A stretch of DNA of 64,000 nt from Actinomycetota bacterium (lineage in GTDB: Bacteria > Actinomycetota > Aquicultoria > UBA3085 > Oleimmundimicrobiaceae): positions 6,084-70,083 of the forward strand of contig DSBK01000103.1 in NCBI GenBank assembly GCA_011046085.1, read 5' to 3'. This document shows, one piece after another, positions 5,890 to 60,378 of the stretch (positions are counted from its first letter, which is position 1; each line of letters starts with the position of its first letter). The translations under genes and the position numbers were made by a program. The notes under the pieces are model-generated. The model saw only the letters and a program-made list of their open reading frames with translations, did no database searches and was not told the DNA's origin.

Positions 5890-6392
5890 ATCTTAACTAT
5901 CTTTCCAGATATCGAACCACAATTTTTATCTGTCGACTCGTCAATGTCAAGAAACCCAAGTGAGTTTTGGCCGGTAAATGCCCTATCCATAGCACTACCG
6001 GGATTAAACAATAAAACATTGTCAATTACCTGATTGTAAAATGAGTGGCTATGACCAAAAACTATGCAATCAACGTCGCTAAACTCTCTCCTTACCCTTT
6101 GCGGAAGATCAACAGGGGAACCCCAACCGTGCATCATGCCAATTTTACATCCACCGACTTCAACAACGATTTTTTCCGGTAAAACCTTCTTGGTATCGGG
6201 AAAATCCATATTTCCTCTTACGGCAACCGTTTTGGCCACATCTTTTAAGACCTCGAGGACACGCAAATCCACCATATCGCCAGAATGAAGGATAATATTT
6301 ATCTCTTTGAAGTGGCAATGGACAATTTCTGTTAAGCGATCGAGGTCTTCTTCCGTTTTAACGTGAGTATCCGAAATTACACCTATTCTCAA
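5886..6392 (-). CDS. YfcE/MJ0936-family metallophosphoesterase
   Basis: [16 protein letters not shown] and GHSHSF motifs; overlaps lon by 4 nt, so likely co-transcribed. Confidence 0.75.
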   Translation of the reverse strand: MRIGVISDTHVKTEEDLDRLTEIVHCHFKEINIILHSGDMVDLRVLEVLKDVAKTVAVRGNMDFPDTKKVLPEKIVVEVGGCKIGMMHGWGSPVDLPQRVRREFSDVDCIVFGHSHSFYNQVIDNVLLFNPGSAMDRAFTGQNSLGFLDIDESTDKNCGSISGKIVKI

Positions 6393-15409: not shown

Positions 15410-18097
15410 TTACGCTCTCTCAACTCGCACTGCGCACACTTTAAGCTCGGGTATCTTCGATACCGGGTCGAGCGCAGAGTTGGTAAGCATATTTACCGGA
15501 GCTTCTTTGAAATGGAAGGGCACAAACACGGTTCCTTTTGGAACACGCGGAGCAACACATGCTTTAATTTCAACTTTCCCTCGCCGTGAGATGAGTTCGA
15601 CCCAATCATCGTCTTTTATATTAAGCTTTTTAGCATCTTCGGGGTTTATCTCAACCCTGGCCTCCCTGCAGACCTCGTCGAGCCCCATTGAATGTCTGGT
15701 CATCGTGCCAGTGTGATAGTGATACAAGAGTCTTCCAGTAGTTAAAACGAATGGATACTCTTTGTCCGTTTCCTCCGCAGGCGGCTTGTATTCAACCGCG
15801 TGAAATTTGCCCAACCCTCTTGTAAATTTCTCGGCGTGAAGAATTGGCGTTCCTGGATGCGTTGCGTCTGGGCATGGCCATTGAACGCTTTCTTTGCTCA
15901 CCCTCTCAAATGTTATTCCTCCATATGTGGGAGTGATGCTCGCAATCTCATTGGTAATTTCACCGACCGTCTCGTAATTCATCTCATAACCCATGACCTT
16001 CGCCAAATCGGAGATTATTAACCAATCGGGCCTGGAATTGCCAACTGGCGCAATGGCTCTTCTTACTATCTGAACTCTTCTTTCAGTATTGGTAAATGTT
16101 CCGTCTTTTTCAGCAAAAGAGACACCGGGTAGAACAACATCGGCAAGCTCAGCGGTCTCGGTTAAAAATATATCCTGAACGACTAAGAAATCCAACTTTT
16201 CAAAGGCTTCTTTCACGTGATTTAAATCGGGATCTGAGAGCATGGGGTTTTCGCCCATAATATACATGGCTTTGACCTCGCCACGCAAAACGGCATCCGT
16301 CATCTCGGTAACACTTAAACCGCCTTTTTCTGGAAGTTTCGCTCCCCAAATATCTTTGCACTTCTCAATAATCCCCAAATCGCAGACATTTTGATAACCG
16401 CTTACGCAACCGGGAAGCGCGCCCATATCACAGGCACCCTGAACGTTGTTCTGTCCCCTCAGCGGATTAACGCCCGCTCCAGGCCTTCCGATGTTTCCGG
16501 TAAGCATTGCCAGATTAGCAATGGAGAGAACGTTGTTCGTGCCCGTGGTGTGCTGGGTTATTCCCATACAGTAAAAGATTGCCCCGTTTTTAGCCGCAGC
16601 AAAGAGCCGCGCCGCCTTCCTTAAAGAATCGGCCGGTATGCCCGAAACATTCTCAACTTTCTCAGGCGTATATTTAATAACTGTTTTCTTTAATTCTTCA
16701 TAATCTTCCGTTCGTTTATTGATAAAGTCCTTATCTTCCAAGCCCTCCTCAATTATCACGTTCATGAGCCCGTTTAAAACAGCGACATCTGTTCCTGGTT
16801 TTTGAGAGAGCCACATATCGGTGTATTCTGTTAGCCGAATTTTTCGAGGATCAATTACAATTAATTTCGCTTTAAAATCATATACCGCTCTCTTCATCTC
16901 AAGAGCAACTATCGGATGATTTTCGGTGGTATTTGATCCGATAACGAGCATTACATCAGCTTTAACTATGTCATCAAGGGAGTTTGTCATCGCTCCGCTT
17001 CCAAACGCTTTGACCAGACCGGCCACAGTTGGAGCGTGTCACAAACGGGCACAATGGTCGATATTGTTTGTGCCAATCACCGCCCTCATAAATTTCTGCA
17101 TCAAATAATTTTCTTCATTGGTGCACTTTGCCGAGGAAAGACCCGCAATTGCATCTGAGCCATGTTTCTTTTTTATCTTTGAAAACTTGTCTGCAACGGT
17201 TTTAATTGCCTCATCCCACGAAGTCTCAACAAGCTCCCCGTTTTTTCGAACCAAGGGCGAGGTGAGTCTGTTGGGGTGATTTACGAAATCATAACCAAAC
17301 CTACCCTTTGCACAAGCATTTCCTTTATTGATACCACTCTCAACATCGGTTGAAACACGAACAATTTCGCCGTTTTTAATTTGGATTTCTAGCTCACAGC
17401 CACATCCGCAATAAGGACAGATGGTCTTCACTTTTTCTATTTCCCAGATTCTTCCCTTATATCTGCTCATCTTTTCAGTTAAAGCTCCTGTGGGGCAGGT
17501 GGATACACACTGCCCGCAAAGCTCGCACTTGGTTTCGATGAGCGACCTGTCATAAGGAGTTGTAACTATGGCATCGAAACCTCGGTTAGCAAAGGTATAG
17601 ATGCTGTTTTGCTGAACCTCCTCACAGATACGAACGCAACGGCCACAACTTATACATTTATTTAAGTCCCTTTCAATCAAAGGATTGTAATCTTCGATGG
17701 TATAGGTATGTTTTTCCCCTTCAAAACGGTTCTCTTCTATCCCCAGTTCATAAGCTAAATCTTGAAGTTGGCACTGCCCCGCGCTCTCACAGGTCACACA
17801 GCTTAACTCATGATCGGAAAGCAGTAATTCAACAATGGTTCTTCTGATTTCATAAAGCGGAACCGTATTGGTCTTTACAACCATGCCATCGATGACTTCG
17901 GTCGCACAGGCTGGCAGAAAAGTTCTTGCTCCTTCAACTTCAACGAGGCAAACTCGACAGGCTCCATACGGTTTAAGCCGCGGGTCATGGCAGAGCGTTG
18001 GAATTTTTATCCTATTTTCGCCGGCTACCTCAAGTATGGTTTTGCCGGGTTCGGTTTCAATTTTTCTATCATTTATGACCAAGTTAATCTTCGCCAT
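15410..18097 (-). CDS. fdhA: Selenocysteine-containing formate dehydrogenase catalytic subunit (FdhA; N-terminal 2Fe-2S/4Fe-4S domains plus Mo-bisPGD domain), one gene with an in-frame UGA at 17039-17041
   Basis: ORFs 17039-18097 and 15410-17026 are in the same frame. Reading through the TGA gives ...NNIDHCARL-U-HAPTVAGLVKAF..., the canonical Sec motif of FdhF/FdhA (E. coli ...RVUHGPSVAGL). The C-terminal part carries the molybdopterin dinucleotide-binding domain. Confidence 0.85.
16986..17038 (-). promoter_or_regulatory. SECIS-like hairpin immediately 3' of the fdhA UGA
   Basis: mRNA: UGA CACGCUCC AACUGUGGCC GGUCU GGUCAAAGCGUUUGGAAGCGGAGCG. The lower stem is CGCUCC/GGAGCG and the upper stem is GGCC/GGUC with a GGUCU apical loop, closely resembling the E. 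coli fdhF SECIS (UGCA-GGUCU-GCA) at the same distance from the UGA. Confidence 0.55.
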
Positions 18098-22599: not shown

Positions 22600-22885
22600 T
22601 TAATAATAGTCGATGGCCCAAAACTCTCTGCTCCATTAGTCGATAGTCTCTTAGTGGGGAGTCGGCAGTAAGTTCAATTGAGAATTAAAAACGAAAAAAT
22701 TTAAAATCTTTAAAGACATTCTTAATTTTTAATTACCGCCCGCACTGGGGTGGGTCGTTTTTATTTTTTTCGTAAGACCAGCATCTGGCATTCTCCATTC
22801 TCCATTTGTCTTCTAACTTTCCCCTTTCCCCTTCACCCTCTACCCTTATTTTGCCTTCTGCCATCTGCCATCAGCTATATGCAAT
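22600..22885. repeat. Intergenic repeat element, copy 2 (full length, about 250 bp)
   Basis: ...attagtcgatagtctcttagtggggagtcggcag...AT-rich linker...cccctttccccttcaccctctacccttattttgccttctgccatctgccatcagctatatgcaattag; near-collinear with copy 4 (31555-31790). Confidence 0.7.
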
Positions 22886-23943
22886 TAGCCAAAATATTTG
22901 TCTCTCAAAACGGAGGAAAGCTCAGCCGTTAATTTTATGCTTTTTTCCGCCAAATCCACCGCCATTGAACCCGTGCCACAATTTGGCGTGATTAAGCTCG
23001 CCTCAAGGAGTTTCATCTTATCAGCACCCTTGTCGACCAATAATTGAACTTTTTCTTCAAACCTTTTAAGTAAATCTTCCAGGGTCTCACCCGATATCGC
23101 ATCTGGACTCGGATAGGTGGATGGGACTATCCCCCAGGCGAGCACCCCTCCTCTATCCAAAAAATTATTGAGTTCTTTTGGATATAAGGCCATGCTTTCA
23201 GTGTGGTCATACGCATCGAAGCTTATGATGTCAACGGCAGTTTCCATTAAGATGCTCCAGTCAGTGCGACCACAGCAATGAACCCCGCAAAGGCTGTCCA
23301 CCGCATAAAAACACTCATTTAAATAGGATATAACCTCGTCTTTATTGAGTTTTATGTAAGCCGAGCCGTAAGACTGAAGATAGGGCTCGTCAAAGAAAAC
23401 AACCGTTTTTACATCGGGAGATAATTTCTTAAATTGTCTTAATTGCCACTTAGCCTTCATGATAAGCGTCTTTATGATGGCATCTCTTAAAAGATCATTG
23501 TAAAGAACCGCTTGTTTGTTTTGATCGGTTACGGTCAAACCAAAGCTAATTGGCCCTATCATCTGGCCTTTTAACATAACCAAATCAGCCGGCATGCTCT
23601 TTTCCAAGATGCTCATCATAGCATGGAACCCACGCGCGTAATCTTCGGATATCTTGAAATAATCTAAATCTTCGGCCAAAAATCTATCATAAAACCTCTC
23701 AAGCTCCCATGCCAAATTTCCCCGGGCCTCGAGATGAATCCTTTTCTTTTCCTCATCTATCCTTATCGCCGGCATGCCCTCTGAAATTTGAATGAACATG
23801 CTCTCTTTGAAAGAAACGTTAGGAAGTTGGGGCCATATCGGTATCTGGGGAGTATGCTTCAAAACCACCTCACACGCTTTATCTGCGTCTATGTGCGGCA
23901 TACTTCCAATGGTTGTCGGAAGACAGCATGGCTTAAATTCCAT
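22885..23943 (-). CDS. Short MetE-like (cobalamin-independent methionine synthase C-terminal fold) methyltransferase
   Basis: CCLPTTIGSMPH matches the MetE C-domain motif LPTTTIGSFPQ; the roughly 350 aa UroD/MetE-fold size is typical of methylcorrinoid-dependent methyltransferases. Confidence 0.65.
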   Translation of the reverse strand: MEFKPCCLPTTIGSMPHIDADKACEVVLKHTPQIPIWPQLPNVSFKESMFIQISEGMPAIRIDEEKKRIHLEARGNLAWELERFYDRFLAEDLDYFKISEDYARGFHAMMSILEKSMPADLVMLKGQMIGPISFGLTVTDQNKQAVLYNDLLRDAIIKTLIMKAKWQLRQFKKLSPDVKTVVFFDEPYLQSYGSAYIKLNKDEVISYLNECFYAVDSLCGVHCCGRTDWSILMETAVDIISFDAYDHTESMALYPKELNNFLDRGGVLAWGIVPSTYPSPDAISGETLEDLLKRFEEKVQLLVDKGADKMKLLEASLITPNCGTGSMAVDLAEKSIKLTAELSSVLRDKYFG

Positions 23944-33985: not shown

Positions 33986-35939
33986 TTTCCAGCTCCCTCC
34001 TCATTTCCATATCGTAAAGCACTCTCTCTTTTTCGCGGTCTATTCCCAGGGCCTTTCTTCTCTTATCTATATTCTCAATCAGAATCTTAGCCATCTTAAC
34101 AGGATCGGGCTCGTAAAACCACTTTCCGCCCGTCGTCTCCTCAATTTCTTTAAAGAGATAATCGGATATTATCTCGCTGTTAGCTGTCGGGAAGGAGACA
34201 CCGAAACCAACCACGGCTCCGCTTGAGACAAAGTACTGACCTATGGCTACAGCTTTTTCGCTCATCCATTCCGGAGCGCAGCCAGCAGCCGGTATCTCGC
34301 TTATATCTTCACCGAGACCGCCTTCTTTAACTATCTCCGAGACAGCGACGAGAATTCGGCTGTTATCAACACACGAGCCGCAATGAAGCACGGGGGGGAT
34401 ACCCACCGCCTCGCAAACCTCGCGCAAACCAGCGCCCGCCAACTCGGCGGCTTCGGGGATAAGCAACCCTTCCTTTGCGCAACTTATCGCTGCGCAACCC
34501 GTAACCAAAACAAGTATGTTGTTTGCGATAAGCTCCTTAACCAATGTGGTGTGGACATAATCGTGTTTTACGCGCGGGTTGTTGCACCCCACAACGCCCA
34601 CAACGCCCTTTATCCTGCCATTGATTATGTTGTCGTTTAATGGTCTGTAAGAAGCGCGGAACCTTCCGCCTAGCATGTAGTTTATGGTTTCGTGAGAAAA
34701 GCCCGCCACAAGTTCAATTTCTTCTTTGGGAATATCGACCTTTCTCCTTTTGGGATAATTTTTAATGGCCCTTTTGACGATATTTTTTGCCGTTTCAATG
34801 GCATTATGATGATCGAATTCCATATGCGTGGCGCCCAAAATTTTACCCTTAGAAGAGGTAGTGATTATCTCTGTATGATAGCATTGAGCTACCGTCGGCA
34901 AAGACTGCATGATACATTGCACATCCACCACCATTGCATCGACAGCGCCCGTACAGATGGCCAACTCCTGCTGTAAGAAGTTGCCAGCCACGGGAATACC
35001 TTTGCGCATCAAAATTTCATTTGCCGTGCAACATATGCCAGCGAGGTTTATGCCTTTAGCGCCCGCCTCCTTGGCCTGTTCAACTAACTCAGGATCCCTT
35101 GTCGCGGCAACTATCATCTCGGAAAGCAAGGGCTCGTGACCGTGAACGATTATGTTAACTTCATCTTCTTTAAGGACACCTAAATTCACCTTTGCCCTGA
35201 TTGGAATGGGGGTCCCAAACATTATGTCTTGAAGCTCAGTGGCAAGCATCGAACCACCCCAGCCATCAGCTAAAGATGCCCTGCAACCATGAAGCAGGAT
35301 ATTTTTATAATCCTGATCGACGCCCATGTGGGTCCTGTGCATGGTTTCAACTATCTCGCGGTCAACCCCGCGAGGCGATATTCCTTCTTCTCTCCAGCGT
35401 TCTTGTCTCTTTTTCGGAGCTTGTTTTACAAGAGTTATTTCACCTTGCTGTTTGCTCATCTCAGCGAGAGCTCTCTCGCCCAACTCCAAAGCTATCTGGT
35501 TTTTGTCTTTGCCTTCTACATTGATATCAAAAGTTTTGGCCAAGGCATGCAATTTCGTGTCATCTTTTATCTCATAGCCGGGCACTTCGCCTTTTGCTGC
35601 AGCAATAAAGGTAAATATAACTTCCCTTGCGTGATCCGAGTGCGCGGCCGCCCCAGCAGCAATCATTCGAACAAAGTTTCTAGCCGCAACCGTGGAAGTG
35701 GTAGCGCCACAAACCCCGGTTCTTGTCTCGGTTACCCTGCAAGGACCCATTGAACATATTCTGCAACACGTTCCGCCCGAACCAAACGAACATGACTTAA
35801 GGGAAGCGACCCTATCAAAAGCGGTCTCTGCCCCGTCTTTTTTAGCCTTATTTATCATTTTTGCGCTTGCGGTGCAGCTGGTCTGCTCGCTAGCAGCAGG
35901 GTAAAATTTGTTTTCTCCGTTTTCGTTTTGTTTTTTCAT
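33978..35939 (-). CDS. acsA: Anaerobic Ni-Fe-S carbon monoxide dehydrogenase catalytic subunit (CooS/AcsA)
   Basis: N-terminal CCRICSMGPCR and downstream Cys/His C-cluster motifs; about 650 aa; immediately upstream of acsB with 8 nt overlap. Confidence 0.9.
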   Translation of the reverse strand: MKKQNENGENKFYPAASEQTSCTASAKMINKAKKDGAETAFDRVASLKSCSFGSGGTCCRICSMGPCRVTETRTGVCGATTSTVAARNFVRMIAAGAAAHSDHAREVIFTFIAAAKGEVPGYEIKDDTKLHALAKTFDINVEGKDKNQIALELGERALAEMSKQQGEITLVKQAPKKRQERWREEGISPRGVDREIVETMHRTHMGVDQDYKNILLHGCRASLADGWGGSMLATELQDIMFGTPIPIRAKVNLGVLKEDEVNIIVHGHEPLLSEMIVAATRDPELVEQAKEAGAKGINLAGICCTANEILMRKGIPVAGNFLQQELAICTGAVDAMVVDVQCIMQSLPTVAQCYHTEIITTSSKGKILGATHMEFDHHNAIETAKNIVKRAIKNYPKRRKVDIPKEEIELVAGFSHETINYMLGGRFRASYRPLNDNIINGRIKGVVGVVGCNNPRVKHDYVHTTLVKELIANNILVLVTGCAAISCAKEGLLIPEAAELAGAGLREVCEAVGIPPVLHCGSCVDNSRILVAVSEIVKEGGLGEDISEIPAAGCAPEWMSEKAVAIGQYFVSSGAVVGFGVSFPTANSEIISDYLFKEIEETTGGKWFYEPDPVKMAKILIENIDKRRKALGIDREKERVLYDMEMRRELEIV

Positions 35940-38485
35940 TTACTGGCTCCTCCTTTTGAAACACTTACAGCAATGAGCCGATGCTGTGGACTCTTTAACT
36001 TTGAATCCACGTTATCGCTTGCCAAAACGCCTCTTTCTTCATGACAACTTGGCATAAACAGCAACCCTTTGGGCAAAGAGCCGAGCATCTTCACCGATGT
36101 TGTTATCTTGCCTCGCCTAGAGGAAATTAAAACCGCGTCTCCTTCTTTTAAACTCAAAGACTCAGCATCCTCGGGGTTAAAGCCAGCGTAATTTCCCTTG
36201 TTTAATTCAAGAATAGACAGTTTCGAATTTCTTGTTCTTTGCCCATCGTAAAATCCAAATGATGTCTCGCCAACAATAAGCGCGTAAGGATACTTGCCAT
36301 CGGGTTCTTCACCAGACTTTTTTGGTTTTACAACGATAAAATCGTATGTATTCTTTTCGATCTTCTTGGGAATGGGAACCAGGGACTTTATCTCCTTGGC
36401 AATCTCTTTCTCAGAAGAGTATTCCATAGTATAGTCCATTCTTTCAGACAAATCAGCTATTGTCTCCCAGTCGGGTTTAGCCAAGGGTTCGAGAGCCGCC
36501 TTCACCTCTTTTGTCTGATACTCCAAGTTAACAACGGTGCCATTACTCTCGGCTAAAGTCGCGCCGGGCAACACAACATCTGCCATTTTCGCGGTTTCCG
36601 TCAAAAACACATCTTGAACCACCAAAAAATCTAAAGATGAAAACGCCTTCGCCACCTTTGATGAATTAGGAAACTGCGCAACCGGGTCCGCGCCGACAAT
36701 ATACATTCCTAAAACGGACGAGCCCATGTTTTCAACCATTTCCATGGCCGACAATCCCATTTCGTCGGGAAGATCGCGTTCCCATATTTTCTTGAAATCG
36801 TTCCCGATTTCATTCGCTCTCCTTGCGCCCGGATAAAACCCAGCCAAAGCCCCCATGTAGATCGTACCTCGCAAGTTGGAAGACAAAAGACATGGTAGCA
36901 CGCTTGCTTTGGTTCTTCCGGTTAGAAGCGCGATATCGGCAATTAATCCCATGCTTTGAGAGCTCACGGTTTCCGCTCCAAAGAGAATGATTGTCTTTTT
37001 GCCTTCTCCGTAAAGCTTTGCGGCTTCCTTTAAAAAGTCCTTGGATGTTTTTGTTTCCTTTTCTATGGTTTCTACTTTTAATCCGTCGAGAGACTTCTTA
37101 AATTCATCAAAATTCTTACACTTTTTAGTAAATTTTTCGTCATGCAGGTTTTCTTCCAGCAATTCCTTTAAAATCCCGCTTAAGACAAACTCTTCGGAGT
37201 CAACCTGTGGTTCTATATGAAGATCAGCAAGTTCAGAAATCTCCGTCTTTTTAGAATCAATGACAACGACTTTTGCTCCATTTAAAATTGCTTTTTTGAC
37301 ACTGGCGCCAACGCGAGGGTAAGACGCCGTAAGATCCGCGTTCACGAGCAAGAGAACGTCTGCCTCCTCAACATCCTTCATTGAAACAACAGCCCCATCC
37401 CTAAGCGCTTCATACAAATCAATTAAAGCGGGGAAACCTAAGAACCTGGCGGAACTATCGATATTGTTCGTCCCAATGCCAGCCCGCAAAAACTTCTGGA
37501 ATAAGTAAGCAACCTCATTTGTGTTTCCCGCTCCCATGAAACCACCGATGCTGTTTGCTCCATGTTTTTTCTTTATATCAATAAGACGCTCCGCCACAAC
37601 CTTAATAGCCTCTTCATAAGTACTCTCGGTTAAAACTCCATCCTTTTTAATTAAGGGCTTCGTAATTCGCTCAGAGCTTTCCACAAAATCCCATCCAAAC
37701 CTACCCTTTGAGCAAATATAATCACACGAGACCTCCCCGGTTGCCCTCATAATCTGTCCGTCCACGGTGCTAAACACAAGCTCACAACCGCAGCCACAGT
37801 AAGAACAGACCGTTTTTGTTTCTTTCATCTCCCATTCTCGACCACAAAAACGTCTATCAACCTCAACCAAAGCGCCAACGGGACAAACCGCGAGACAACT
37901 TCCGCAGAAATCACAACCCGACTCCTGTAATGGCCTATCCATTGGCGTAGCCACCTTGGTAACCATGCCCCTTTTGACAAAGTCAATAATATCCGCCCCC
38001 TGTTGTTTGCAGATTCTCACACACCTTCCGCAAAGAATACAGAGATTGTAATTTCTCTCTATGAAGGGATTGCTTCTGTCAACATCGTAACCTGGATCTT
38101 TCATTGAGAAACTGGTTTTCTCGATGCCAAGCTCGTAAGCATACTTTTGGAGATCGCAAGCGCCATTTTTATCGCAACTCATACAATCTCCGGGATGATT
38201 TGAAAGTATCAACTCCAGAACAAAACGCCTGGCCTCTCGAACTTTCTCCGTGTCGGTATCAACTACCATCCCATTCTTAACTTTTTGGGCACACGAAGCC
38301 ACAAGCCCTTTGCCTCCCTCAACTTCAACCAAACAAACCCTACACGAACCCGTGCTGGGAAGACATTCGCAGTAACAAAGATGAGGGATATCAATCCCCG
38401 CCATCTTGGCCGCCTGAATGATGAGAGTCCCTTCGGGAACTTTTATTTCTTTTCCGTTTATCGTTACGGTGACTTGATCACTCAA
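35936..38485 (-). CDS. FdhA/NuoG-like large Fe-S subunit lacking the Sec/Cys Mo ligand (non-catalytic electron-transfer paralog)
   Basis: Same N-terminal 2Fe-2S plus 4Fe-4S architecture and NNID motif as fdhA, but ...NNIDSSARFLGFP... replaces ...NNIDHCARLUHAP...; the C-terminal molybdopterin-binding-like domain is retained. Confidence 0.75.
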   Translation of the reverse strand: MSDQVTVTINGKEIKVPEGTLIIQAAKMAGIDIPHLCYCECLPSTGSCRVCLVEVEGGKGLVASCAQKVKNGMVVDTDTEKVREARRFVLELILSNHPGDCMSCDKNGACDLQKYAYELGIEKTSFSMKDPGYDVDRSNPFIERNYNLCILCGRCVRICKQQGADIIDFVKRGMVTKVATPMDRPLQESGCDFCGSCLAVCPVGALVEVDRRFCGREWEMKETKTVCSYCGCGCELVFSTVDGQIMRATGEVSCDYICSKGRFGWDFVESSERITKPLIKKDGVLTESTYEEAIKVVAERLIDIKKKHGANSIGGFMGAGNTNEVAYLFQKFLRAGIGTNNIDSSARFLGFPALIDLYEALRDGAVVSMKDVEEADVLLLVNADLTASYPRVGASVKKAILNGAKVVVIDSKKTEISELADLHIEPQVDSEEFVLSGILKELLEENLHDEKFTKKCKNFDEFKKSLDGLKVETIEKETKTSKDFLKEAAKLYGEGKKTIILFGAETVSSQSMGLIADIALLTGRTKASVLPCLLSSNLRGTIYMGALAGFYPGARRANEIGNDFKKIWERDLPDEMGLSAMEMVENMGSSVLGMYIVGADPVAQFPNSSKVAKAFSSLDFLVVQDVFLTETAKMADVVLPGATLAESNGTVVNLEYQTKEVKAALEPLAKPDWETIADLSERMDYTMEYSSEKEIAKEIKSLVPIPKKIEKNTYDFIVVKPKKSGEEPDGKYPYALIVGETSFGFYDGQRTRNSKLSILELNKGNYAGFNPEDAESLSLKEGDAVLISSRRGKITTSVKMLGSLPKGLLFMPSCHEERGVLASDNVDSKLKSPQHRLIAVSVSKGGASK

Positions 38486-38502: not shown

Positions 38503-39024
38503 TTAAACAATTTCTATGGCATCAACTTCACATACGGCCAGACATTTGCCGCAGTTAGTGCATTTTTTACTCTTAATATAATAGGGCTTATTATCCGAAA
38601 GATATGGAATCATTTTGTCTCCAACAATTGCATCCTCGGAACAAACCACTTTACAAGCTCCGCAAGACGTACATTTTTCTGGATTTATCCAATAATTTAA
38701 TATATCTTCACAGGACTTTTGGGCACAATGTTTCTCTTTTATATGTTCCTCATACTCGCCCTTATATGAGGACAAGGAGTCCTTTATAAAAACAGCGGCA
38801 TCTTTGCCCAACTTGCATCGGGCGGTGTCAATAATATGAGAAGATATCTCCTCGAGCAAAACCACGTCTTCCTCTTCTCCCTCTCCTTTTGTAATTCTTT
38901 CAAGAACATCGACCATTCGTTCCGTTCCAAGCATGCAGGGCAGACACTTACCGCACATCTTATCTTTAGTAAACCCCTTTAAGAATTCTAGCGTTATCAT
39001 AACGGAACAACCGTTGGCGCTCAC
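38503..39024 (-). CDS. Stand-alone NuoF C-terminal module homologue (N3-type cluster plus 2x[4Fe-4S])
   Basis: MCGKCLPCMLGTER... parallels ESCGKCPPCRIGTYE of the adjacent NuoF-like gene, followed by CTSCGACKVVC and CTNCGKCLAVC ferredoxin motifs. Confidence 0.6.
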   Translation of the reverse strand: MSANGCSVMITLEFLKGFTKDKMCGKCLPCMLGTERMVDVLERITKGEGEEEDVVLLEEISSHIIDTARCKLGKDAAVFIKDSLSSYKGEYEEHIKEKHCAQKSCEDILNYWINPEKCTSCGACKVVCSEDAIVGDKMIPYLSDNKPYYIKSKKCTNCGKCLAVCEVDAIEIV

Positions 39025-40958
39025 TTGACCACCTCCTGCCTGCCTGTCTGTCGGCAGACACGGCCGGCAGGCACAGCCTGCTTACCAGAAGATACAGTCT
39101 TTTCCTCAAACTCCCTCACAACACAACCTGTCGGGCAAACTCCTATACAAGCTCCGCACTTTTCACAATATGACTGGTCGATGTAGAACCTGTCCCGCTC
39201 TTCCACGATCGCGTCATAAACACATACTTCCTTACAAAGACCGCAAAGAAGACATTCCTCCTCATGTATTCTGTATCTACCAAGCGCCGTGCATGCGCCG
39301 GCTGGACAATATCTATTTCTTATATGAGCTTCATACTCATCCCTGAAATATTTGATGGTTGAAAGCACGGGATTGGGCGCGCTTTTCCCCAATCCGCAAA
39401 GAGCTGTCTCTTGAATATGCTTACCTATAATTTCAAGGCGCTCAATATCTCCCTCTTCACCTTTACCTTCAACAATTCTAGTCAAAATATTAAACATCTC
39501 ATACGTTCCAATCCTGCAAGGAGGACATTTCCCACAGGATTCCACCTGAGTAAAAGAGAGGAAGTATCTGGCAATTTCCACCATGCAATTGGACTCATCC
39601 ATAACAACAAGCCCGCCGGAGCCCATCATTGCCCCAACCTCATCCAATGAATCGAAGTCTACCGGCAAATCGAGATATTCTTTGGGGATACATCCGCCGC
39701 TGGGTCCACCCGTCTGAACGGCTTTAAACTCTTTGTCACCCAAAATGCCGCCACCTATATCGTAAACAATCTCTCGAATGGTGACCCCCATTGGAACCTC
39801 GATTAGGCCCGTGTTTTTAACTTTTCCAGTTAACGCAAATATTTTTGTTCCCGGTGAACCCTTTGTCCCAATGGAAGTGTACCAATCCGCTCCCTTGATT
39901 ATTATCGGAGCAATATTAGCCAAGGTCTCAACGTTATTCAATACGGTGGGTTTGCCCCACAAACCCTTCTCTACAGAACGAGGAGGCGTTGTTCGAGGCA
40001 TTCCTCTTTTGCCCTCAATGGAGAACATAAGCGCTGTCGACTCTCCACATATGAAGGCCCCCGCTCCCCGTTTTATTTCCAAATCGAAGTTAAAACAGCT
40101 CCCAAGTATATTATTACCCAACAAACCAAGCTCCCTCGCCTGATTAATGGCTATAGTTAAATTCTCAACAGCAAGAGGATACTCTTGTCTCACATATATG
40201 AACCCCTTTTCGCAGTTACCCAGAGCATAAGCGCCAATTGCCATGCCCTCGATGACTGAATGGGGATCTCCCTCAAGAACGCTTCTGTCCATAAAAGCAC
40301 CCGGGTCCCCTTCGTCGCCGTTACAAACAATGTACTTTATATTTCCCTTTGTTCTTCGGCCTCCTTCCCACTTTCTCCCCACAGGGAAGCCAGCGCCACC
40401 CCGACCTCTCAGGTTGGACTTTTTAACCTCGTCGATAACTTCTTCCGGGGTCATATCGCTCAAAACTTTTGCCAGAGCCTCATAACCACCAACCGCTATG
40501 TAATCCTCTATGTTGGTCGGGTCAATTTGACCACAATTTCTTAAAACTATTCTATGTTGCTTGCCGTAGAAGGAAATCTCTTCCTCTTTGACAGCAAGAT
40601 CACCCGTAATCGGGTCAACCACTTGCAGACGGTCAATGACCTTGCCACGGTTTATTGTAAGATCAATTATCTTAGCCGCATCAAAAGGATCAACTTTTTG
40701 ATAAAAGACATCAAGGGGCTCTACAATTACAATGGGGCCCTTTTCACATAATCCCTGGCAACCGGTGGGCCTTATTTCAAAATCGACACCTTGTTTGGCC
40801 GCTTCTTTTTTGAAGGCCTCCACCACCTTTTGGGAGCCCGAAGCGCGACATCCCGTTCCACTGCAGACCCGAACTATCGTCTTTTTCTGCCTTGCTCTTT
40901 TGTTACAAATTTTTTCTCTTAAAGCACTTAATTCTTTAAAATTTTTGAGTTTACTCAT
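39021..40958 (-). CDS. NuoF-like NAD(P)H-binding flavoprotein subunit (second copy)
   Basis: RGRGGAGFPVGRKW, ESCGKCPPCRIG and C-terminal 2x[4Fe-4S]; paralogous to 18559-20376. Confidence 0.85.
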   Translation of the reverse strand: MSKLKNFKELSALREKICNKRARQKKTIVRVCSGTGCRASGSQKVVEAFKKEAAKQGVDFEIRPTGCQGLCEKGPIVIVEPLDVFYQKVDPFDAAKIIDLTINRGKVIDRLQVVDPITGDLAVKEEEISFYGKQHRIVLRNCGQIDPTNIEDYIAVGGYEALAKVLSDMTPEEVIDEVKKSNLRGRGGAGFPVGRKWEGGRRTKGNIKYIVCNGDEGDPGAFMDRSVLEGDPHSVIEGMAIGAYALGNCEKGFIYVRQEYPLAVENLTIAINQARELGLLGNNILGSCFNFDLEIKRGAGAFICGESTALMFSIEGKRGMPRTTPPRSVEKGLWGKPTVLNNVETLANIAPIIIKGADWYTSIGTKGSPGTKIFALTGKVKNTGLIEVPMGVTIREIVYDIGGGILGDKEFKAVQTGGPSGGCIPKEYLDLPVDFDSLDEVGAMMGSGGLVVMDESNCMVEIARYFLSFTQVESCGKCPPCRIGTYEMFNILTRIVEGKGEEGDIERLEIIGKHIQETALCGLGKSAPNPVLSTIKYFRDEYEAHIRNRYCPAGACTALGRYRIHEEECLLCGLCKEVCVYDAIVEERDRFYIDQSYCEKCGACIGVCPTGCVVREFEEKTVSSGKQAVPAGRVCRQTGRQEVVK

Positions 40959-41466
40959 CGTTCTCTTCCCCTTTATTTTTAAGGGCCGAGATTATCTTCT
41001 TTGGATTTCTCTCTTTAGAGACATTCTCGTTAACCACAACGACCGGGGCAAGCGCACAACATCCGACGCAACTCACCGTTTCCAGGGTAAATTCGAGGTC
41101 GTCTGTAGTTTCACCGGCTTTTATTCCGAGCTCTTCTTCCAACCCTTCGAGAATTAATTTCGAACCGCGAACATAACAAGCTGTGCCTGTGCAAACTTTA
41201 ATTATATTTTTTCCTCGAGGGGTAAAGTAAAAATGCGCATAAAACGAGGCAACCCCATACACGTGAGCCAGAGATAAATCAAATTCATCGGCGATAACTT
41301 CGAGTGATTCTTCAGGCAAAAAACCAAATTCTTCTTGAACATCCTGCAGAGCATGTACAAGTACTCCCGTCTTGCCTTCATACTTCTTTAGTAATTTATG
41401 GACATCATCTACATCTATCTGAATTTTTTTCTCTTCTTTTTTGGTACCACAAACGCAATTGGACAT
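40951..41466 (-). CDS. NuoE-like [2Fe-2S] subunit (second copy)
   Basis: CTGTACYVRG...CVGCCALAPVVVVN. Confidence 0.85.
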   Translation of the reverse strand: MSNCVCGTKKEEKKIQIDVDDVHKLLKKYEGKTGVLVHALQDVQEEFGFLPEESLEVIADEFDLSLAHVYGVASFYAHFYFTPRGKNIIKVCTGTACYVRGSKLILEGLEEELGIKAGETTDDLEFTLETVSCVGCCALAPVVVVNENVSKERNPKKIISALKNKGEENDE

Positions 41467-51166: not shown

Positions 51167-51556
51167 TTATTTGGATTGGTGATTTTTAACTTTTCCCTCG
51201 GTTAAAATCTTTTCAGCCTTTTTAATCATCTCAATCTCACCCTTGTAAGAGAGTATTTTGGAAGCATTCTCAACTGACACCCACCTGACTTCCCTTACTT
51301 TAAAATCGTGATCACCTATATCGCCTTCAACATATTTCATCAAATAAAAATGAACAAACTTATGATATCTTATCCTGTGGAGGTTCCAATAAAACCAGTA
51401 GTCAATCTGGCCAATCTTATCGACAATTTCGCCAATTAAACCAGTTTCTTCTTTAACCTCACGCAACGCAGTTTCTTCAGGTGTTTCATCCCTCTCAACC
51501 AAACCCTTAGGCAAGCACCAAACATTCTTCTTATCGTTTCGAGCGGTAATTGCCAC
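51167..51556 (-). CDS. NUDIX hydrolase
   Basis: Nudix box G-x5-E-x7-REVKEETGL. Confidence 0.8.
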   Translation of the reverse strand: MAITARNDKKNVWCLPKGLVERDETPEETALREVKEETGLIGEIVDKIGQIDYWFYWNLHRIRYHKFVHFYLMKYVEGDIGDHDFKVREVRWVSVENASKILSYKGEIEMIKKAEKILTEGKVKNHQSK

Positions 51557-51790: not shown

Positions 51791-53569
51791 TTAAATGTCT
51801 TTAGCAATACAGGTTTTATTGCGACCGCTTTTTTTGGCCCGATACATAGCTTGGTCTGCCTTATCGAATAAGAGCGGCGCTTCTTTTATTCCTCCAGCAA
51901 GAGAAGCTACCCCTATGCTTAACGTTATCGGAATACGTTTTCCTTCAAAAATGAAATCAAACTCCTCGACCCTGTAACGCAATTTCTCCGCAACCGCGAA
52001 TGTTTCCGTTTTTGAAATTTGCGGTAAAATTATGGCAAATTCATCTCCGCCCTGGCGGGCCGCAATATCCGCTTCACGCAAGTTTTTACGCAATATCTGC
52101 GCAACCGCTTTCAGCACCTCATCTCCTCTCAGGTGCCCATATGTATCATTAATTAGCTTAAATCGGTCTATGTCGAACACTATGATAGACAACTGGGATT
52201 CGTAGCGCTGAGCTCTACGAACTTCTCTCTCTAGAGTGCGGTTAAACCCATAGTGGTTGAGCAGCCCCGTAACTGCGTCAATCATGGACATCTTCTTCGC
52301 GTCTTCTTTTATTCGATTCATGAGCTTCTTTTGGTAGGGAAAACATGTGTCCCAATTTGTTATCCCTCTGTATACCGCGAGCGCATTTTCGCTGCATGTT
52401 CGGTAACCGCAAGCGCCACAATTCAGTTCATCTTGAGGAGAAAAAATTTCTGCCTCCGCCATCAATTTTTCTATCTCTTCTTTGGATGGGAACGATAAAT
52501 CTATTGCCTTGCTGGTAAATGTTCGCCTCAAACTAACTTTCGGCAAACCGGGGATTATCTCGGAGGGGCTGGGCCACCCAATTTTCCTATGCTCTTTCCT
52601 GTAGTTTTTCTGAATCTGATCCTTTAGAGTATATAAACTTCGCCCTTTAGCTAAACCGTTTCTCATCGCGGGACCATTAATACAACCATTGCAACTTAAA
52701 ACATCAATAAACCGAGCTTGAACCTCATTTAAACTTAATGCTCGTGCCAAAGATTGCACACCATCAACGCCCCTTGTTGCTTTAAAGTTCCGATTAATTG
52801 CACTCGTTTCCATCATAAATTTCCGGGGCAAGCCACCCGGTAAAGAATCAAATCGCGAAACTTTTTCAACCGACTTTAATTTCGCTTCCGATAGAGATTT
52901 TAAATCAACCTCTATATCATCAAGCATCTCCTTTAACTCAGAGAACGTTATGACCGCATCGATCGCATCCATAACGGATTCATCGGCCACCTCGGCTTTT
53001 TGAGCAACACAAGATGTTACGTAGACGGTGTAAACATCGCCATATAACATTTTACAAAGACGGCCTTGAGCAATCATCGGGGAAACAATTGGGGCGAGAT
53101 AAGGGATTAAATCAGGAAAATATTTCTCTATTAAATTTACAACGACAGGGCAAGTAGAACGTATTATTGGAAAATCATCGTCCTGGCTCAAAATATTCAT
53201 ATATTCATTGGCCACAAGCTCTTCGCCTAAAATGGCGCCCTCGACAGCATCGAATCCGAGCTTTATGAGACCGGCGGCAATTTCAGTTGAACCAAAAGGA
53301 TAAAAAGCCGCCAGATGCTCGGGAGCCAAGATTGCAATGGCATTCTTTTTTTTGTTGGCCAAACGCTGTACTCTTTTTTTACTATTTTTAAGTGTTAGGG
53401 CGCCCTGCGAACAAGCTATTACACATTCACCGCAAAATATGCACAGTTCATGCAGAACTTCAACGCCACCGTCAGCCACCTTTATACATTTAACGGGGCA
53501 CGAACGGATACATCTATAACATTCTTTACATTTTTCGGGGCTGCATTCGATTATGTTTAAGGTTTCCAT
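51791..53569 (-). CDS. Sensory [FeFe]-hydrogenase-like protein (2x[4Fe-4S] plus H-cluster domain plus extra 4-Cys cluster) fused to a C-terminal GGDEF diguanylate cyclase
   Basis: N-terminal CxxCxxCxxxCP x2. The H-domain carries L1 RSTCPVV (TSCCP with the proton-relay Cys replaced by Thr), L2 VTSCVAQKAE (MPCxxKxxE) and L3 DVLSCNGCINGP (ExMACxGGCxxG). A CGACGYRTC...C cluster follows, and the C-terminal GGDEF domain has an intact RQGGDEF motif. Confidence 0.7.
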   Translation of the reverse strand: METLNIIECSPEKCKECYRCIRSCPVKCIKVADGGVEVLHELCIFCGECVIACSQGALTLKNSKKRVQRLANKKKNAIAILAPEHLAAFYPFGSTEIAAGLIKLGFDAVEGAILGEELVANEYMNILSQDDDFPIIRSTCPVVVNLIEKYFPDLIPYLAPIVSPMIAQGRLCKMLYGDVYTVYVTSCVAQKAEVADESVMDAIDAVITFSELKEMLDDIEVDLKSLSEAKLKSVEKVSRFDSLPGGLPRKFMMETSAINRNFKATRGVDGVQSLARALSLNEVQARFIDVLSCNGCINGPAMRNGLAKGRSLYTLKDQIQKNYRKEHRKIGWPSPSEIIPGLPKVSLRRTFTSKAIDLSFPSKEEIEKLMAEAEIFSPQDELNCGACGYRTCSENALAVYRGITNWDTCFPYQKKLMNRIKEDAKKMSMIDAVTGLLNHYGFNRTLEREVRRAQRYESQLSIIVFDIDRFKLINDTYGHLRGDEVLKAVAQILRKNLREADIAARQGGDEFAIILPQISKTETFAVAEKLRYRVEEFDFIFEGKRIPITLSIGVASLAGGIKEAPLLFDKADQAMYRAKKSGRNKTCIAKDI

Positions 53570-58098: not shown

Positions 58099-60378
58099 TT
58101 AATCAAGCGGTCGATTAAATAAATGGTGATTAGCGACAATTTTGAGTCTTTCGCTCAAATCACCCAGACTCACTGAGAGTAAATTATTTAAGAGGTGCAC
58201 ACCGGACGAGCGTTTAATAAGAATGGCCAGATTCGAAAGAAACCGTTTATACATATCTATCTCTTCTCCTAAAGAGATATGATCCATCTCAACAATTTCA
58301 ATTTTTCCATTGTTAATGCCCAAATTAAGATCATCGTTTAAAATATATTTCTTGACTTCGACTTCAATATTTTGCACCAGTTTACTTCCGCCTATTTTGG
58401 CATATTGCTTCAATAAAGAATTGGTTATGTTAACAAACGTCTCCCTTATCGCCCTTCTCTCTTCTTCTTTGTTCTTCAACAACTTCCAATAGAAATCTTC
58501 CTCGGAAAAAATTTTGATTTTTCCCCTCTCGAATGCCAAGAGGAACGCTTCGACCACATCGGGATCAAATTGGGTGCCGGAATTTTTTTTAACCTCTTCA
58601 ATAGCCTCGGTGGCCATCTTCGCCCTATGATATGGCCTGTTGGAAGTCATCGCTTCAAAACAATCGGCAACTGTAATGATCCTGGCTCCCAAAGGTATCT
58701 CTTCACCCGATAATCCTCCGGGGTAACCTAGGCCATCATAGCGCTCGTGGTGATGGCGAACAAGCGATATGATATCCCAAGGAAATTCAATCGGCACCAA
58801 TATGTTTGCTCCTATTAAGGGATGGGTTTGTATTATTAGCATCTCATCGAAGGTGAACTTGCCTGGTTTAAGAAGTATCTGCTCGCCTATGCCAATCTTC
58901 CCTATGTCATGCAATATTGCAGCTACTTTAATCTGTTCTCTTTCGGACTCGCTTAACCCCATTTCTTCCGCTATGGCAACCGCATACTCCGTAACTCTAT
59001 CGGCATGGCCCCTTGTGTAGGTGTCTTTCGCATCCACCGCTTCGGCCAAAGCTCTTATAACGCCAAAGAAATTATTCCTTATTTCCTGATAAAGTTTAGT
59101 ATTTTCAAGAGCTACCGCCGCCTCGTTGGCCATCGCGGTGAGAAGCTCGAGGTCATCATCATCAAACGTCTTGTCGCCAATCTTGTTGGTTATGTTTAAC
59201 ACACCGATTATTTTACTTCGCACCTTCAAAGGAACAACAATTGCATCTTTTGTGCCCTCTTTTGCTTGAATTGGTTGAAAACGAGGGTCATTTATCCCGT
59301 TGATAAGCAGAAGCGGCTCGCCCTTCTTGGCTACCCAACCAGAAATTCCGTCGCCGAGCTTCAATTTCGTGCTTTTTACAACTTCATCACTTAAGCCGTG
59401 AGCCGCCTTGATGGTCAACTCATCTTTTTTCTCATTTAGCATCATCAAAGAAGCTTTTTCTGCCCCTATGATTCCGGTGGCCGCATCCAGTATCGTTTCC
59501 AAAAGCTCTTTCTCGTTGAGAGAAGAGCCCAACGCTCTCCCCACGCTGGCTACGCAAGATTTTGCTTGGGACTGGGAGGTGCCAAGCTCGTTTATCAGCG
59601 ATGAAAATTTTCTGGTCATCTTATTGCAAGCTTCAAATAGCTCGCCGAACTCATCTTTGGATAAAATTTTTGCTCGTTTCTTAAAATCGCCCTTTTCTAC
59701 CTGCTGAGCGGTACACTTCAAAATCTCAATCGGGCGATACACAAATTTTGATAATACCACCCACTGCAGAAACAAACTAACCAAAATGACAACAAGCGCT
59801 AGCAAAAAACTTCTTAAGTAAATTGTGTCCACAACCTCAGCAAATTCGACAAGGTTGACATATATGTGAATTGCTCCCGACAACTCCCCCTCAACAAAAA
59901 ATGGCATCACAATCTCTTGAGCTCTTGTTCTTCTATCAAAAAACCCAAAACTTTCTACAACCTCGCCTTTTTCCGATTCCTCCCCGATGAAAACCCAAAT
60001 TTGTTCAATGATTTCCCTTTTTTCAATGGCGCTACGCAAGCATTCATCCTCATCTTTCTCTCCTTTCTCCTCGGCATCCAATGAAAAGAGTATGTTGGCC
60101 CCTTTATCAACCACATGAAAGCAAACAAAATCTTGATTTAAGGAATGCGCATAGGAAAATAGGTATTTTTCTTCAGGTAGAGATATGACCTCATCTTCTA
60201 AAAAATTCTCAACATGGTATTTAAGAGAATTTGCGATAATAAAATTTTTCTCTTTTGCCCACTCCAAACAACGGTTTTTTTGCCATTGGACTGAAAAATA
60301 AGTCATAGCTCCAACAAGCACAAAAATCAATAGTCCGCCGGCTACCCCAAGCTTCCAGCGCAACCTCATTTTAACCAT
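58099..60378 (-). CDS. HD-GYP c-di-GMP phosphodiesterase with N-terminal TM/periplasmic region, HAMP and GAF domains
   Basis: HD...HDIGKIGI...HHERYDGLGYP (HD-GYP); HAMP linker after TM2; GAF domain in the middle. Confidence 0.85.
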   Translation of the reverse strand: MVKMRLRWKLGVAGGLLIFVLVGAMTYFSVQWQKNRCLEWAKEKNFIIANSLKYHVENFLEDEVISLPEEKYLFSYAHSLNQDFVCFHVVDKGANILFSLDAEEKGEKDEDECLRSAIEKREIIEQIWVFIGEESEKGEVVESFGFFDRRTRAQEIVMPFFVEGELSGAIHIYVNLVEFAEVVDTIYLRSFLLALVVILVSLFLQWVVLSKFVYRPIEILKCTAQQVEKGDFKKRAKILSKDEFGELFEACNKMTRKFSSLINELGTSQSQAKSCVASVGRALGSSLNEKELLETILDAATGIIGAEKASLMMLNEKKDELTIKAAHGLSDEVVKSTKLKLGDGISGWVAKKGEPLLLINGINDPRFQPIQAKEGTKDAIVVPLKVRSKIIGVLNITNKIGDKTFDDDDLELLTAMANEAAVALENTKLYQEIRNNFFGVIRALAEAVDAKDTYTRGHADRVTEYAVAIAEEMGLSESEREQIKVAAILHDIGKIGIGEQILLKPGKFTFDEMLIIQTHPLIGANILVPIEFPWDIISLVRHHHERYDGLGYPGGLSGEEIPLGARIITVADCFEAMTSNRPYHRAKMATEAIEEVKKNSGTQFDPDVVEAFLLAFERGKIKIFSEEDFYWKLLKNKEEERRAIRETFVNITNSLLKQYAKIGGSKLVQNIEVEVKKYILNDDLNLGINNGKIEIVEMDHISLGEEIDMYKRFLSNLAILIKRSSGVHLLNNLLSVSLGDLSERLKIVANHHLFNRPLD

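Follow-up and report, generated by a model that had tools for sequence, protein, structure and literature searches.

The 64,000-nucleotide stretch of DNA analysed here (positions 6,084 to 70,083 of contig DSBK01000103.1, assembly GCA_011046085.1, from an Actinomycetota bacterium of the class Aquicultoria, family Oleimmundimicrobiaceae), hereafter called the window, encodes at 51791–53569 on the reverse strand (-) a protein of 592 amino acids (aa) in which an iron-sulfur (Fe-S) sensor half of the HydS type, i.e., related to the sensory [FeFe]-hydrogenases, is joined to a GGDEF diguanylate cyclase that would produce the second messenger cyclic di-GMP (c-di-GMP). The protein is very probably a soluble, HydS-derived Fe-S sensor diguanylate cyclase. 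It is an undescribed output variant of the known HydS sensor family that has its own pocket signature and is not a one-off, and its architecture is already present in public databases as one of many outputs of a modular sensor. As to what is sensed, we tentatively prefer the reading that the H-domain carries only a [4Fe-4S] cubane and reports low-potential redox state, and not H2 at a [2Fe] subcluster built by HydEFG, although our confidence in this reading stays somewhat short of even.

Domain architecture of the fusion protein

The sequence-only reading of this DNA had proposed a three-part protein with two N-terminal ferredoxin motifs, a central H-cluster domain followed by an accessory cluster, and a C-terminal GGDEF domain. 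The open reading frame (ORF), which begins with ATG, the Pfam matches and the structural searches all agree on this architecture in one chain. Hidden Markov models for both signature domains, PF02906 and PF00990, matched far above their cut-offs, and Fe_hyd_lg_C (PF02906), anticipated across residues of about 60–330, was detected at residues 76–300 over the full profile (positions 2–245 of 245, E-value 1.9e-42, 146 bits against a cut-off of 22.1). The AlphaFold2 model, for which 52 homologues were used, reached a mean predicted local distance difference test score of 91, and Foldseek searches with this model aligned the front 440–460 residues to solved [FeFe]-hydrogenases (E-values of about 1e-20, with DdHydAB, TkHydA, CbA5H, and CpI as matches of the H-domain) and the tail to GGDEF structures. 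Full-length orthologues (P0002–P0004) share 72% identity with the protein. A gene-call artefact or chimera is ruled out, since more than 50 clusters contain full-length orthologues and the locus is conserved.

The public JGI gene call (P0001, 562 aa) uses an internal GTG start and is 30 residues shorter, so that window positions 53480–53569 (-) are omitted. This start removes the first Fe-S motif CxxCxxCxxxC, and the homologues favour the long form; the loss of these Fer4 cysteines could explain the absence of Fer4 domains from some database entries.

The domain at the N-terminus with its pair of [4Fe-4S] sites of the ferredoxin type (residues 10–59, 53393–53542 (-)) is matched by the Pfam families Fer4, Fer4_9, and Fer4_10, and its cluster cysteines (C14, C17, C20, C24 and C43, C46, C49, C53) are invariant or nearly so in the alignments. 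The H-domain (residues 76–300, 52670–53344 (-)) is delimited by PF02906, by alignment to CpI and by Foldseek. Its four H-cluster cysteines correspond to those of CpI (C140 to C300, C187 to C355, C293 to C499, and C296 to C503) and are kept in 51–52 of the 52 homologues, with C296 invariant and C293 present in 51, so that the claim that all four cubane-ligating cysteines are retained, and with it the alignment of the L1–L3 cysteines with the H-cluster ligands of CpI, holds. In L1 (I-R-S-T-C-P, residues 136–141, 53147–53164 (-)), FPIIRSTCP aligns to FPMFTSCCP of CpI, which places T139 at the proton-relay cysteine C299 and C140 at C300, next to the clade-specific R137. For L2 (T-S-C-V-A-Q-K-A-E, residues 185–193, 52991–53017 (-)), VYVTSCVAQKAE aligns to VTVMPCTSKKFE of CpI, with T185 at M353, C187 at C355, K191 at K358, and E193 at E361. 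The L3 stretch FIDVLSCN-GCINGP, containing the motif D-V-L-S-C-N-G-C-I-N-G-P (residues 289–300, 52670–52705 (-)), aligns to FIEVMACHGGCVNGG of CpI, with L291 at M497, C293 at C499, and the bridging cysteine C296 at C503. The motif A-P-E-H (residues 82–85, 53315–53326 (-)) puts E84 at the position of CpI S232 in the family alignment, an equivalence (CpI A230-P231-S232) that derives from the family consensus 'LAPS' and not from structure; in CpI, S232 adjoins the proximal Fe-CN ligand. Of the residues that hydrogen-bond the cyanide (CN) ligands, the Lys at the K358 position is kept (K191), and the S232 position holds the clade-specific Glu (E84).

The H-domain is followed by the predicted accessory cluster (C384, C387, C392, and C409, 52343–52420 (-)), which is matched by the FeS family PF04060 at residues 382–410 (30.1 bits against a cut-off of 23) and has exactly the spacing Cx2Cx4Cx16C that was defined for TmHydS and TamHydS (PMC8163306). 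The complete HydS layout, with two N-terminal [4Fe-4S] sites, an H-domain, and the C-terminal Cx2Cx4Cx16C motif, is therefore present. So are sensory-type substitutions, a non-relay residue at C299 (T139) and Thr at M353 (T185); loss of C299 and a small or hydroxyl residue at M353 are frequent in sensory enzymes (PMC10055695). The sequence-only reading had taken Thr at the relay position as the pattern of group C sensors. Loss of the relay cysteine stands, whereas Thr as a group C pattern does not, since HydS proteins mostly have Ala, Ser, or Pro where CpI has C299 (PMC10055695, PMC10407848). No PAS domain, a trait of group C (M2f), was matched after the C-terminal cluster, where GGDEF follows after a 19-residue helix. 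Membership of HydS group D was rejected as well, on the grounds that the protein has an output domain and shows no evident Glu252-type path.

A catalytic hydrogenase is ruled out by the missing relay cysteine and by failed family cut-offs. The residues that define the catalytic groups A and B at C299, M353, and M497 (canonical motifs L1 TSCCPxW, L2 MPCxxKxxE, and L3 ExMxCxxGCxxGG) are all replaced in the CpI alignment, by T, T, and L, and the NCBIfam scores for the catalytic families fall far below threshold (TIGR02512, 89 against 406; TIGR04105, 154 against 450). A broader proposal, that the protein is either an active metabolic hydrogenase with a GGDEF tail or a constitutive cyclase whose decayed sensor half is merely structural, is in our view highly improbable. 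The strong Fe_hyd_lg_C match and the low but real H2 turnover of TmHydS and TamHydS (PMC8163306, PMC10055695) speak for activity, but partner subunits and maturases are lacking nearby in addition to the relay cysteine, and decay is hard to reconcile with 16 cluster cysteines and many pocket residues that are invariant over 30–72% identity at a syntenic position that has been kept.

The cyclase domain and its connector helix

The GGDEF domain (residues 429–585, 51815–52285 (-)) is matched by PF00990 (E-value 8.8e-46, 156 bits against a cut-off of 23.8) and TIGR00254 (170 bits against 37.4), and it is 41% identical to the structure 3ign, on which Foldseek superposed it with a TM-score of 0.95 and a root-mean-square deviation of 1.4. 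Competence was scored on the motifs GG[DE]EF (residues 507–511 in the fusion protein), DxD..FK..ND, GH..GD, and a Lys or Arg near the C-terminus. The metal- and GTP-binding motifs FDIDRFKLINDTYGHLRGD, RQGGDEF, and YRAKKSGRN are intact and invariant or nearly so in 52 sequences, among which D466, D468, N474, R498, D501, R505, G507, D509, F511, and K579 are invariant. The domain is thus intact and not degenerate, as had been proposed, and to judge from its residues it is catalytically complete. The RxxD inhibitory site (I-site) READ (R498-E-A-D501) lies five residues upstream of RQGGDEF, and the invariance of R498 and D501 implies that c-di-GMP acts as a feedback inhibitor.

Secondary structure assignment by DSSP on the AlphaFold2 model places a connector helix of 19 residues (residues 410–428, 52286–52342 (-)) between the last cysteine of the sensor clusters and the cyclase domain. 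Because this helix begins one residue past the fourth cysteine of the accessory cluster, changes in the sensor are well placed to shift it, and in the model it may act as a signalling helix. Diguanylate cyclases work as dimers, in which the arrangement of the two half-sites usually depends on the helix that leads into the GGDEF domain. The cyclase domain is 35–41% identical to those of several sensor cyclases such as WspR, PleD, and PadC and shares with them the catalytic residues, the RxxD site, and the entry helix, but the inputs of those proteins are receiver, phytochrome, or other domains and not Fe-S or hydrogenase-like modules. The literature searched held no structural or biochemical description of an Fe-S or hydrogenase-like input on a diguanylate cyclase.

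A family of GGDEF-fused HydS proteins

The sequence-only reading had raised the question whether identical fusions were already broadly annotated. They are not rare: a database search recovered dozens of clusters at 90% identity that combine PF02906, PF04060, and PF00990, and the fusion belongs to a conserved orthologue family auto-annotated as 'diguanylate cyclase' or, in other NCBI and JGI entries, as '[Fe-Fe] hydrogenase large subunit C-terminal domain-containing protein'. A genome-collection search with a full-length alignment, seeded on the GGDEF motifs, returned 79 generic GGDEF proteins and one full-length fusion (L009). No published account of an [FeFe]-hydrogenase–GGDEF fusion was found in the literature searched.

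The sensor half was also searched by itself, and this exhaustive HMMER search gave 651 representatives at 50% identity with E-values of at most 1e-30. Among the best 150 of these, 16 carry GGDEF and 37 a histidine kinase as output, the 21 remaining long representatives include 16 with a sigma-54 activator and three with a methyl-accepting chemotaxis protein domain, and the rest have only PAS (about 570 aa) or no output (about 410–470 aa). Such varied outputs on the same sensor half mark the HydS module as a general-purpose bacterial input domain, of which GGDEF is one regular output. One protein (P0239, 796 aa) combines HydS, GGDEF, and HD-GYP in a single chain. HydDB lists kinase-, chemotaxis-, and phosphatase-linked subtypes of [FeFe] group C and a cyclase-linked [NiFe] subtype; neither the HydS–sigma-54 fusions nor the HydS–GGDEF–HD-GYP protein appears in its C1–C3 scheme.

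The GGDEF-fused family forms two clades. Clade I includes the window protein, and all of its named members come from Actinomycetota metagenome-assembled genomes (MAGs), while clade II consists of Gemmatimonadales; the taxon labels among cluster members are only Actinomycetota or Gemmatimonadales. In clade II, L2 has become 'GVCLTEGG', so that the equivalents of both K358 and E361 are lost, and the accessory motif sometimes lacks its first cysteine. The fusion protein shares 72% identity with the one in a Ca. Oleimmundimicrobium MAG (GCA_030651595.1), in which the gene order is the same and six neighbouring proteins are 59–89% identical to their counterparts in the window. Orthologues at 40–72% identity occupy the same syntenic position in nine further loci. 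The locus of clade I runs AspK-ASD-...-LOG-like-(YbaK), fusion gene, (AmmeMemo radical SAM)-(NUDIX)-...-LytS/LytTR, followed by FTHFS and other Wood-Ljungdahl genes or by hypCDE, with YbaK and NUDIX missing from a few loci. This constant setting indicates an old gene, and the fusion gene is present in single copy and passed on vertically in Wood-Ljungdahl Actinomycetota (Ca. Aquicultoria and kin). In two loci of Gemmatimonadales (L008, 12747–14842, and L009), a sigma-54 activator gene precedes the fusion gene, and a 242-aa unknown ORF, a stand-alone receiver gene, and an HD-GYP gene come after it, an arrangement that may constitute a self-contained c-di-GMP module.

Sequence comparison further distinguishes the GGDEF-fused proteins by the residues around the predicted [2Fe] pocket. 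Of 76 GGDEF-fused sequences, 71 have Glu at the S232 position, where Ser stands in 70 of the 77 kinase-fused and in 102 of the 112 other HydS-like sequences. The T297 position, R137 in the window protein, is Arg in 72 of the 76, in place of the S, T, or A found in the sister groups. At the C299 position (T139), the GGDEF-fused proteins have Thr (72 of 76), whereas the sisters have mainly P, S, A, or C and only occasionally Thr (10 of 77 kinase-fused and 4 of 112 others). Two further residues confined to the GGDEF clades are Pro248 and Arg266. The Glu/Arg pair at the S232 and T297 positions co-varies perfectly and is common to clades I and II, and we infer from the alignment that the two residues sit at the ends of adjacent strands, which in CpI build the [2Fe] pocket. 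P0127 and P0239 are GGDEF proteins that have sister-type signatures and look like independent fusions.

Among characterized proteins, TmHydS of Thermotoga maritima (group C, M2f) shares with the fusion protein the two N-terminal [4Fe-4S] sites, a compact H-domain, the four cluster cysteines, and the K358 equivalent, as well as a non-conserved C299 and a small residue at M353. Its output, however, is PAS instead of GGDEF, its residue at position 299 is Ala instead of Thr, and the PAS-type relatives sampled have Ser at S232 and Thr, Ser, or Ala at T297 where the fusion has Glu and Arg. TamHydS of Thermoanaerobacter mathranii (group D, M2e) has near-identical numbering (C20 in both, A137 for T139, E289 for D289, and C379 for C384) and likewise four clusters in the same layout, with a hydroxyl residue at M353. 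An output domain is absent from TamHydS, its proposed proton path centred on Glu252 is not evident in the fusion protein, and its [2Fe] binding is proven in vitro. The nearest relatives of the sensor half without GGDEF are the kinase-fused HydS-like proteins of the HydDB group C1 type (P0101 from Melioribacteraceae, and P0052), at 36–39% identity over 70% of the query. Common to them and the fusion protein are D289 and L291 at L3, the overall layout, and a short linker to a dimeric output, but the output of the kinase-fused proteins is HisKA plus HATPase and their pocket reads Ser/[STA]/Pro in place of Glu/Arg/Thr.

Two more distant systems are relevant for comparison. Nar1/NARFL, a eukaryotic protein of Fe-S assembly that has no signalling output, has an H-domain that keeps the cubane cysteines and works without [2Fe] or HydEFG. 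In the [NiFe] group 2c hydrogenases, the cyclase is linked to, and is not part of, the catalytic subunit. This group, called 'diguanylate cyclase-linked (putative)' in HydDB, embodies the same concept of a hydrogenase-type sensor that would control c-di-GMP production, with an unrelated metal centre and fold.

Linkage to hydrogenase and maturase genes

Neither hydA nor hydEFG was found near any of 11 loci with GGDEF fusions, i.e., in the 64-kb window and within 10 kb of the fusion gene in 10 others, of which L009, a high-GC locus of Gemmatimonadales, was judged solely through its match to L008. The kinase-fused controls behave differently, since two of two lie between two nuoE-nuoF-hydA (hydCBA) operons with response regulators, a setting never found for the GGDEF clade. 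In these loci (L092, 5771–17906; L093, 5705–17959), three response-regulator or hybrid-kinase genes lie between the operons, and the region is a putative compact H2-responsive regulatory island of Melioribacteraceae-like genomes. Genes of the TmHydS type, too, frequently share operons with group A hydrogenases (PMC8163306), unlike the fusion gene. In the survey of Merino et al. (2020), which covered incomplete MAGs and single-amplified genomes (SAGs) and does not name the organism of the window, HydABC and HydEFG occurred in one genome (Hakuba) of three Wood-Ljungdahl actinobacterial classes and the rest had [NiFe] hydrogenases only (PMC7325909). A literature search on the hydrogenase content of Oleimmundimicrobium, Aquicultoria, and Geothermincolia found nothing usable.

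Two orthologous loci hold the [NiFe] maturation genes hypCDE within 10 kb. A radical SAM gene lies between the fusion and NUDIX genes in L005 (11792–12847) and L089 (11876–12919); the L005 gene was considered as HydE and rejected, as it matches an enzyme of the AmmeMemoRadiSam system at 327 bits.

Redox state or H2 as the possible signal

According to the sequence-only reading, H2 or redox state would be written into c-di-GMP. A link from an Fe-S or H-cluster sensor to the cyclase is reasonable, but H2 as the signal is doubtful given that 0 of 11 fusion loci have hyd genes against 2 of 2 kinase-fused controls, and given the Merino survey. Redox sensing by a cubane-only H-domain is slightly favoured over true H2 sensing because of this absence, together with the private pocket signature and the loss of K358 and E361 in clade II. 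The input would then be electron pressure at the level of ferredoxin or oxidant damage to the clusters. A change in the state of the Fe-S centres would shift the sensor dimer to another conformation, the connector helix would pass this change to the two GGDEF domains and so set the encounter rate of the two GTP-loaded active sites and hence the rate of c-di-GMP synthesis, and the RxxD site would limit the output by product inhibition. As to how the signal leaves the H-domain, a 2026 study argues against a redox relay through the C-terminal cluster: in TamHydS, H2 changes the secondary structure while this cluster stays unreduced (PMC13104023). For this reason, a pure electron-relay model is not assumed here.

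Several points weigh against cubane-only sensing. Clade I has kept the equivalents of K358 and E361 at 40–72% identity, along with P141, P164, G246, and P300, and retention of the L2 Lys and Glu and of these pocket residues argues that the [2Fe] pocket is still constrained. The near-invariant Thr at the C299 position could hydrogen-bond the amine of the azadithiolate ligand, and E84 and R137 may either occlude the [2Fe] cavity or merely line it. TmHydS and TamHydS bind [2Fe] and react with H2 in vitro (PMC8163306, PMC10055695, PMC10407848). The absence of hydEFG, moreover, was seen in single loci and in incomplete MAGs and SAGs, and none of the points against H2 is decisive.

The same observations sustain a genuine H2 sensor as a credible but less probable explanation. 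HydEFG encoded elsewhere would install [2Fe], and a slow, non-catalytic H-cluster with Thr in place of the relay cysteine and the Glu/Arg pair beside the proximal CN ligand would change conformation on H2 and so write H2 pressure into c-di-GMP. This explanation accounts for the four H-cluster cysteines and the K358 and E361 equivalents conserved in clade I, for the full HydS layout with its Cx2Cx4Cx16C motif, and for the small or hydroxyl residue at M353 and the lost C299 typical of sensory enzymes. It also fits an acetogen-like Wood-Ljungdahl host for which H2 is plausibly a key signal, the hypCDE genes within 10 kb in two loci, and the listing of a putative diguanylate cyclase-linked [NiFe] sensor class in HydDB. 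Set against it are the lack of hydEFG and hydA near the 11 fusion loci, unlike the kinase-fused sisters, the single genome with HydEFG in the Merino survey of these classes (PMC7325909), and the replacement of S232 by Glu and T297 by Arg, which is unprecedented in characterized H-cluster pockets. In addition, three maturases kept solely for a sensor would be unparsimonious, and the C-terminal cluster of TamHydS that H2 does not reduce makes a simple redox relay to the output doubtful (PMC13104023). In its most specific form, a true H2 sensor with a non-canonical Thr/Glu/Arg pocket that converts H2 pressure into c-di-GMP in [NiFe]-reliant, acetogen-like Actinomycetota, we regard it as unlikely.

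Within cubane-only sensing, the physiological signal could also be different, with oxygen, NO, or reactive species oxidizing or destroying a cluster and thereby switching the cyclase, for example for aggregation, in the manner of FNR, NsrR, or WhiB; as long as the clusters are intact, they would keep the cyclase in one state, and a strict anaerobe would respond in this way on meeting oxidants. We consider such an oxidant sensor improbable. Four closely spaced [4Fe-4S] sites in a strictly anaerobic lineage are compatible with it, as is the Gemmatimonadales clade, which has kept the cysteines and lost the [2Fe]-specific K358 and E361. The phylum of the Gemmatimonadales contains mostly aerobic or facultative organisms, and eukaryotic Nar1/NARFL, which lacks [2Fe], is oxygen-sensitive. 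The ferredoxin-like pair, however, as the usual port for electron transfer, fits reversible redox sensing at least equally well.

Genomic neighbourhood in the window

Downstream of the fusion gene lies a large Wood-Ljungdahl cluster with FTHFS, RACo, CooC, FolD, AcsABCDE, MetFV, HdrABC-like, and MvhD genes, two NuoEF-like sets, and two formate dehydrogenase-like subunits. The sequence-only reading described this region as a supercluster dependent on H2, formate, and CO. It holds genes for formate dehydrogenase, carbon monoxide dehydrogenase/acetyl-CoA synthase (CODH/ACS), and Hdr/MetFV, but no hydrogenase of any type is encoded in the 64-kb window, and H2 dependence of the cluster is therefore not supported. 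The same reading noted that hydEFG maturase genes are absent, and indeed none of hydE, hydF, hydG, or hydA was found in the window.

The gene for a HAMP-GAF-HD-GYP protein, a putative c-di-GMP phosphodiesterase, lies 4.5 kb upstream of the fusion gene at 58099–60378 (-), close by as had been described, and contains the motifs HDIGK and HHERYDGLGYP; it scores 152 bits, below the cut-off of 400, against the model for the NosR-family c-di-GMP phosphodiesterase. Across orthologous loci it is not conserved: it occurs at this position only in the closest relatives (L003 and L004) and is absent from seven loci of clade I (L001, L005, L006, L007, L089, L090, and L091).

On the other side, a small MutT-like NUDIX hydrolase gene (51167–51556 (-)) follows the fusion gene after a gap of 234 bp, with a start that is perhaps mis-set. 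It is present in most clade I loci examined, though not in L003/L004 or L007, and its pairing with a GTP-consuming cyclase is probably mere synteny.

Two formate dehydrogenase-like genes were found. The formate dehydrogenase alpha subunit at 15410–18097 (-) is split into two ORFs by a single in-frame TGA (17039–17041) in the context HCARL-U-HAPTV and adjoins genes for CBS, NuoF-like, and NuoE-like proteins. As the TGA occupies the usual position of selenocysteine, the enzyme probably contains this residue. A hairpin downstream of the TGA folds no better than shuffled sequence (z = -0.44). The second protein, of the formate dehydrogenase/NuoG-like type (849 aa, 35936–38485 (-)), has Fer2_4, NADH-G_4Fe-4S_3, and molybdopterin domains and lies inside the CODH/ACS cluster with its own NuoF-like and NuoE-like partners (38503–41466 (-)). 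A 352-aa ORF between CooC and an HdrB-like gene (22885–23943 (-)) has no Pfam or NCBIfam match. An Rfam scan of window positions 1–64000 returned no family at gathering score, and no tRNA, riboswitch, or c-di-GMP riboswitch.

Implications

As a single-chain fusion with c-di-GMP as an assayable product, the protein would offer a convenient test of whether HydS modules respond to H2, reductant, or oxidant, and of which residues pass the signal on. The Glu/Arg/Thr pocket suggests, and the apparent uncoupling from hyd genes supports, the hypothesis that a hydrogenase sensor was repurposed in bacteria as a maturase-independent Fe-S redox sensor. If H2 were sensed instead, this would be the first case of an [FeFe] H-cluster wired directly to a nucleotide second messenger. 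The putative sensory function of HydS could then be read enzymatically in a single polypeptide, and the fusion would be the [FeFe] counterpart of the putative diguanylate cyclase-linked [NiFe] group 2c hydrogenases. The fusion would tie redox or H2 status to the control of lifestyle in Wood-Ljungdahl Actinomycetota that are uncultured and live in subsurface and oil-impacted habitats.

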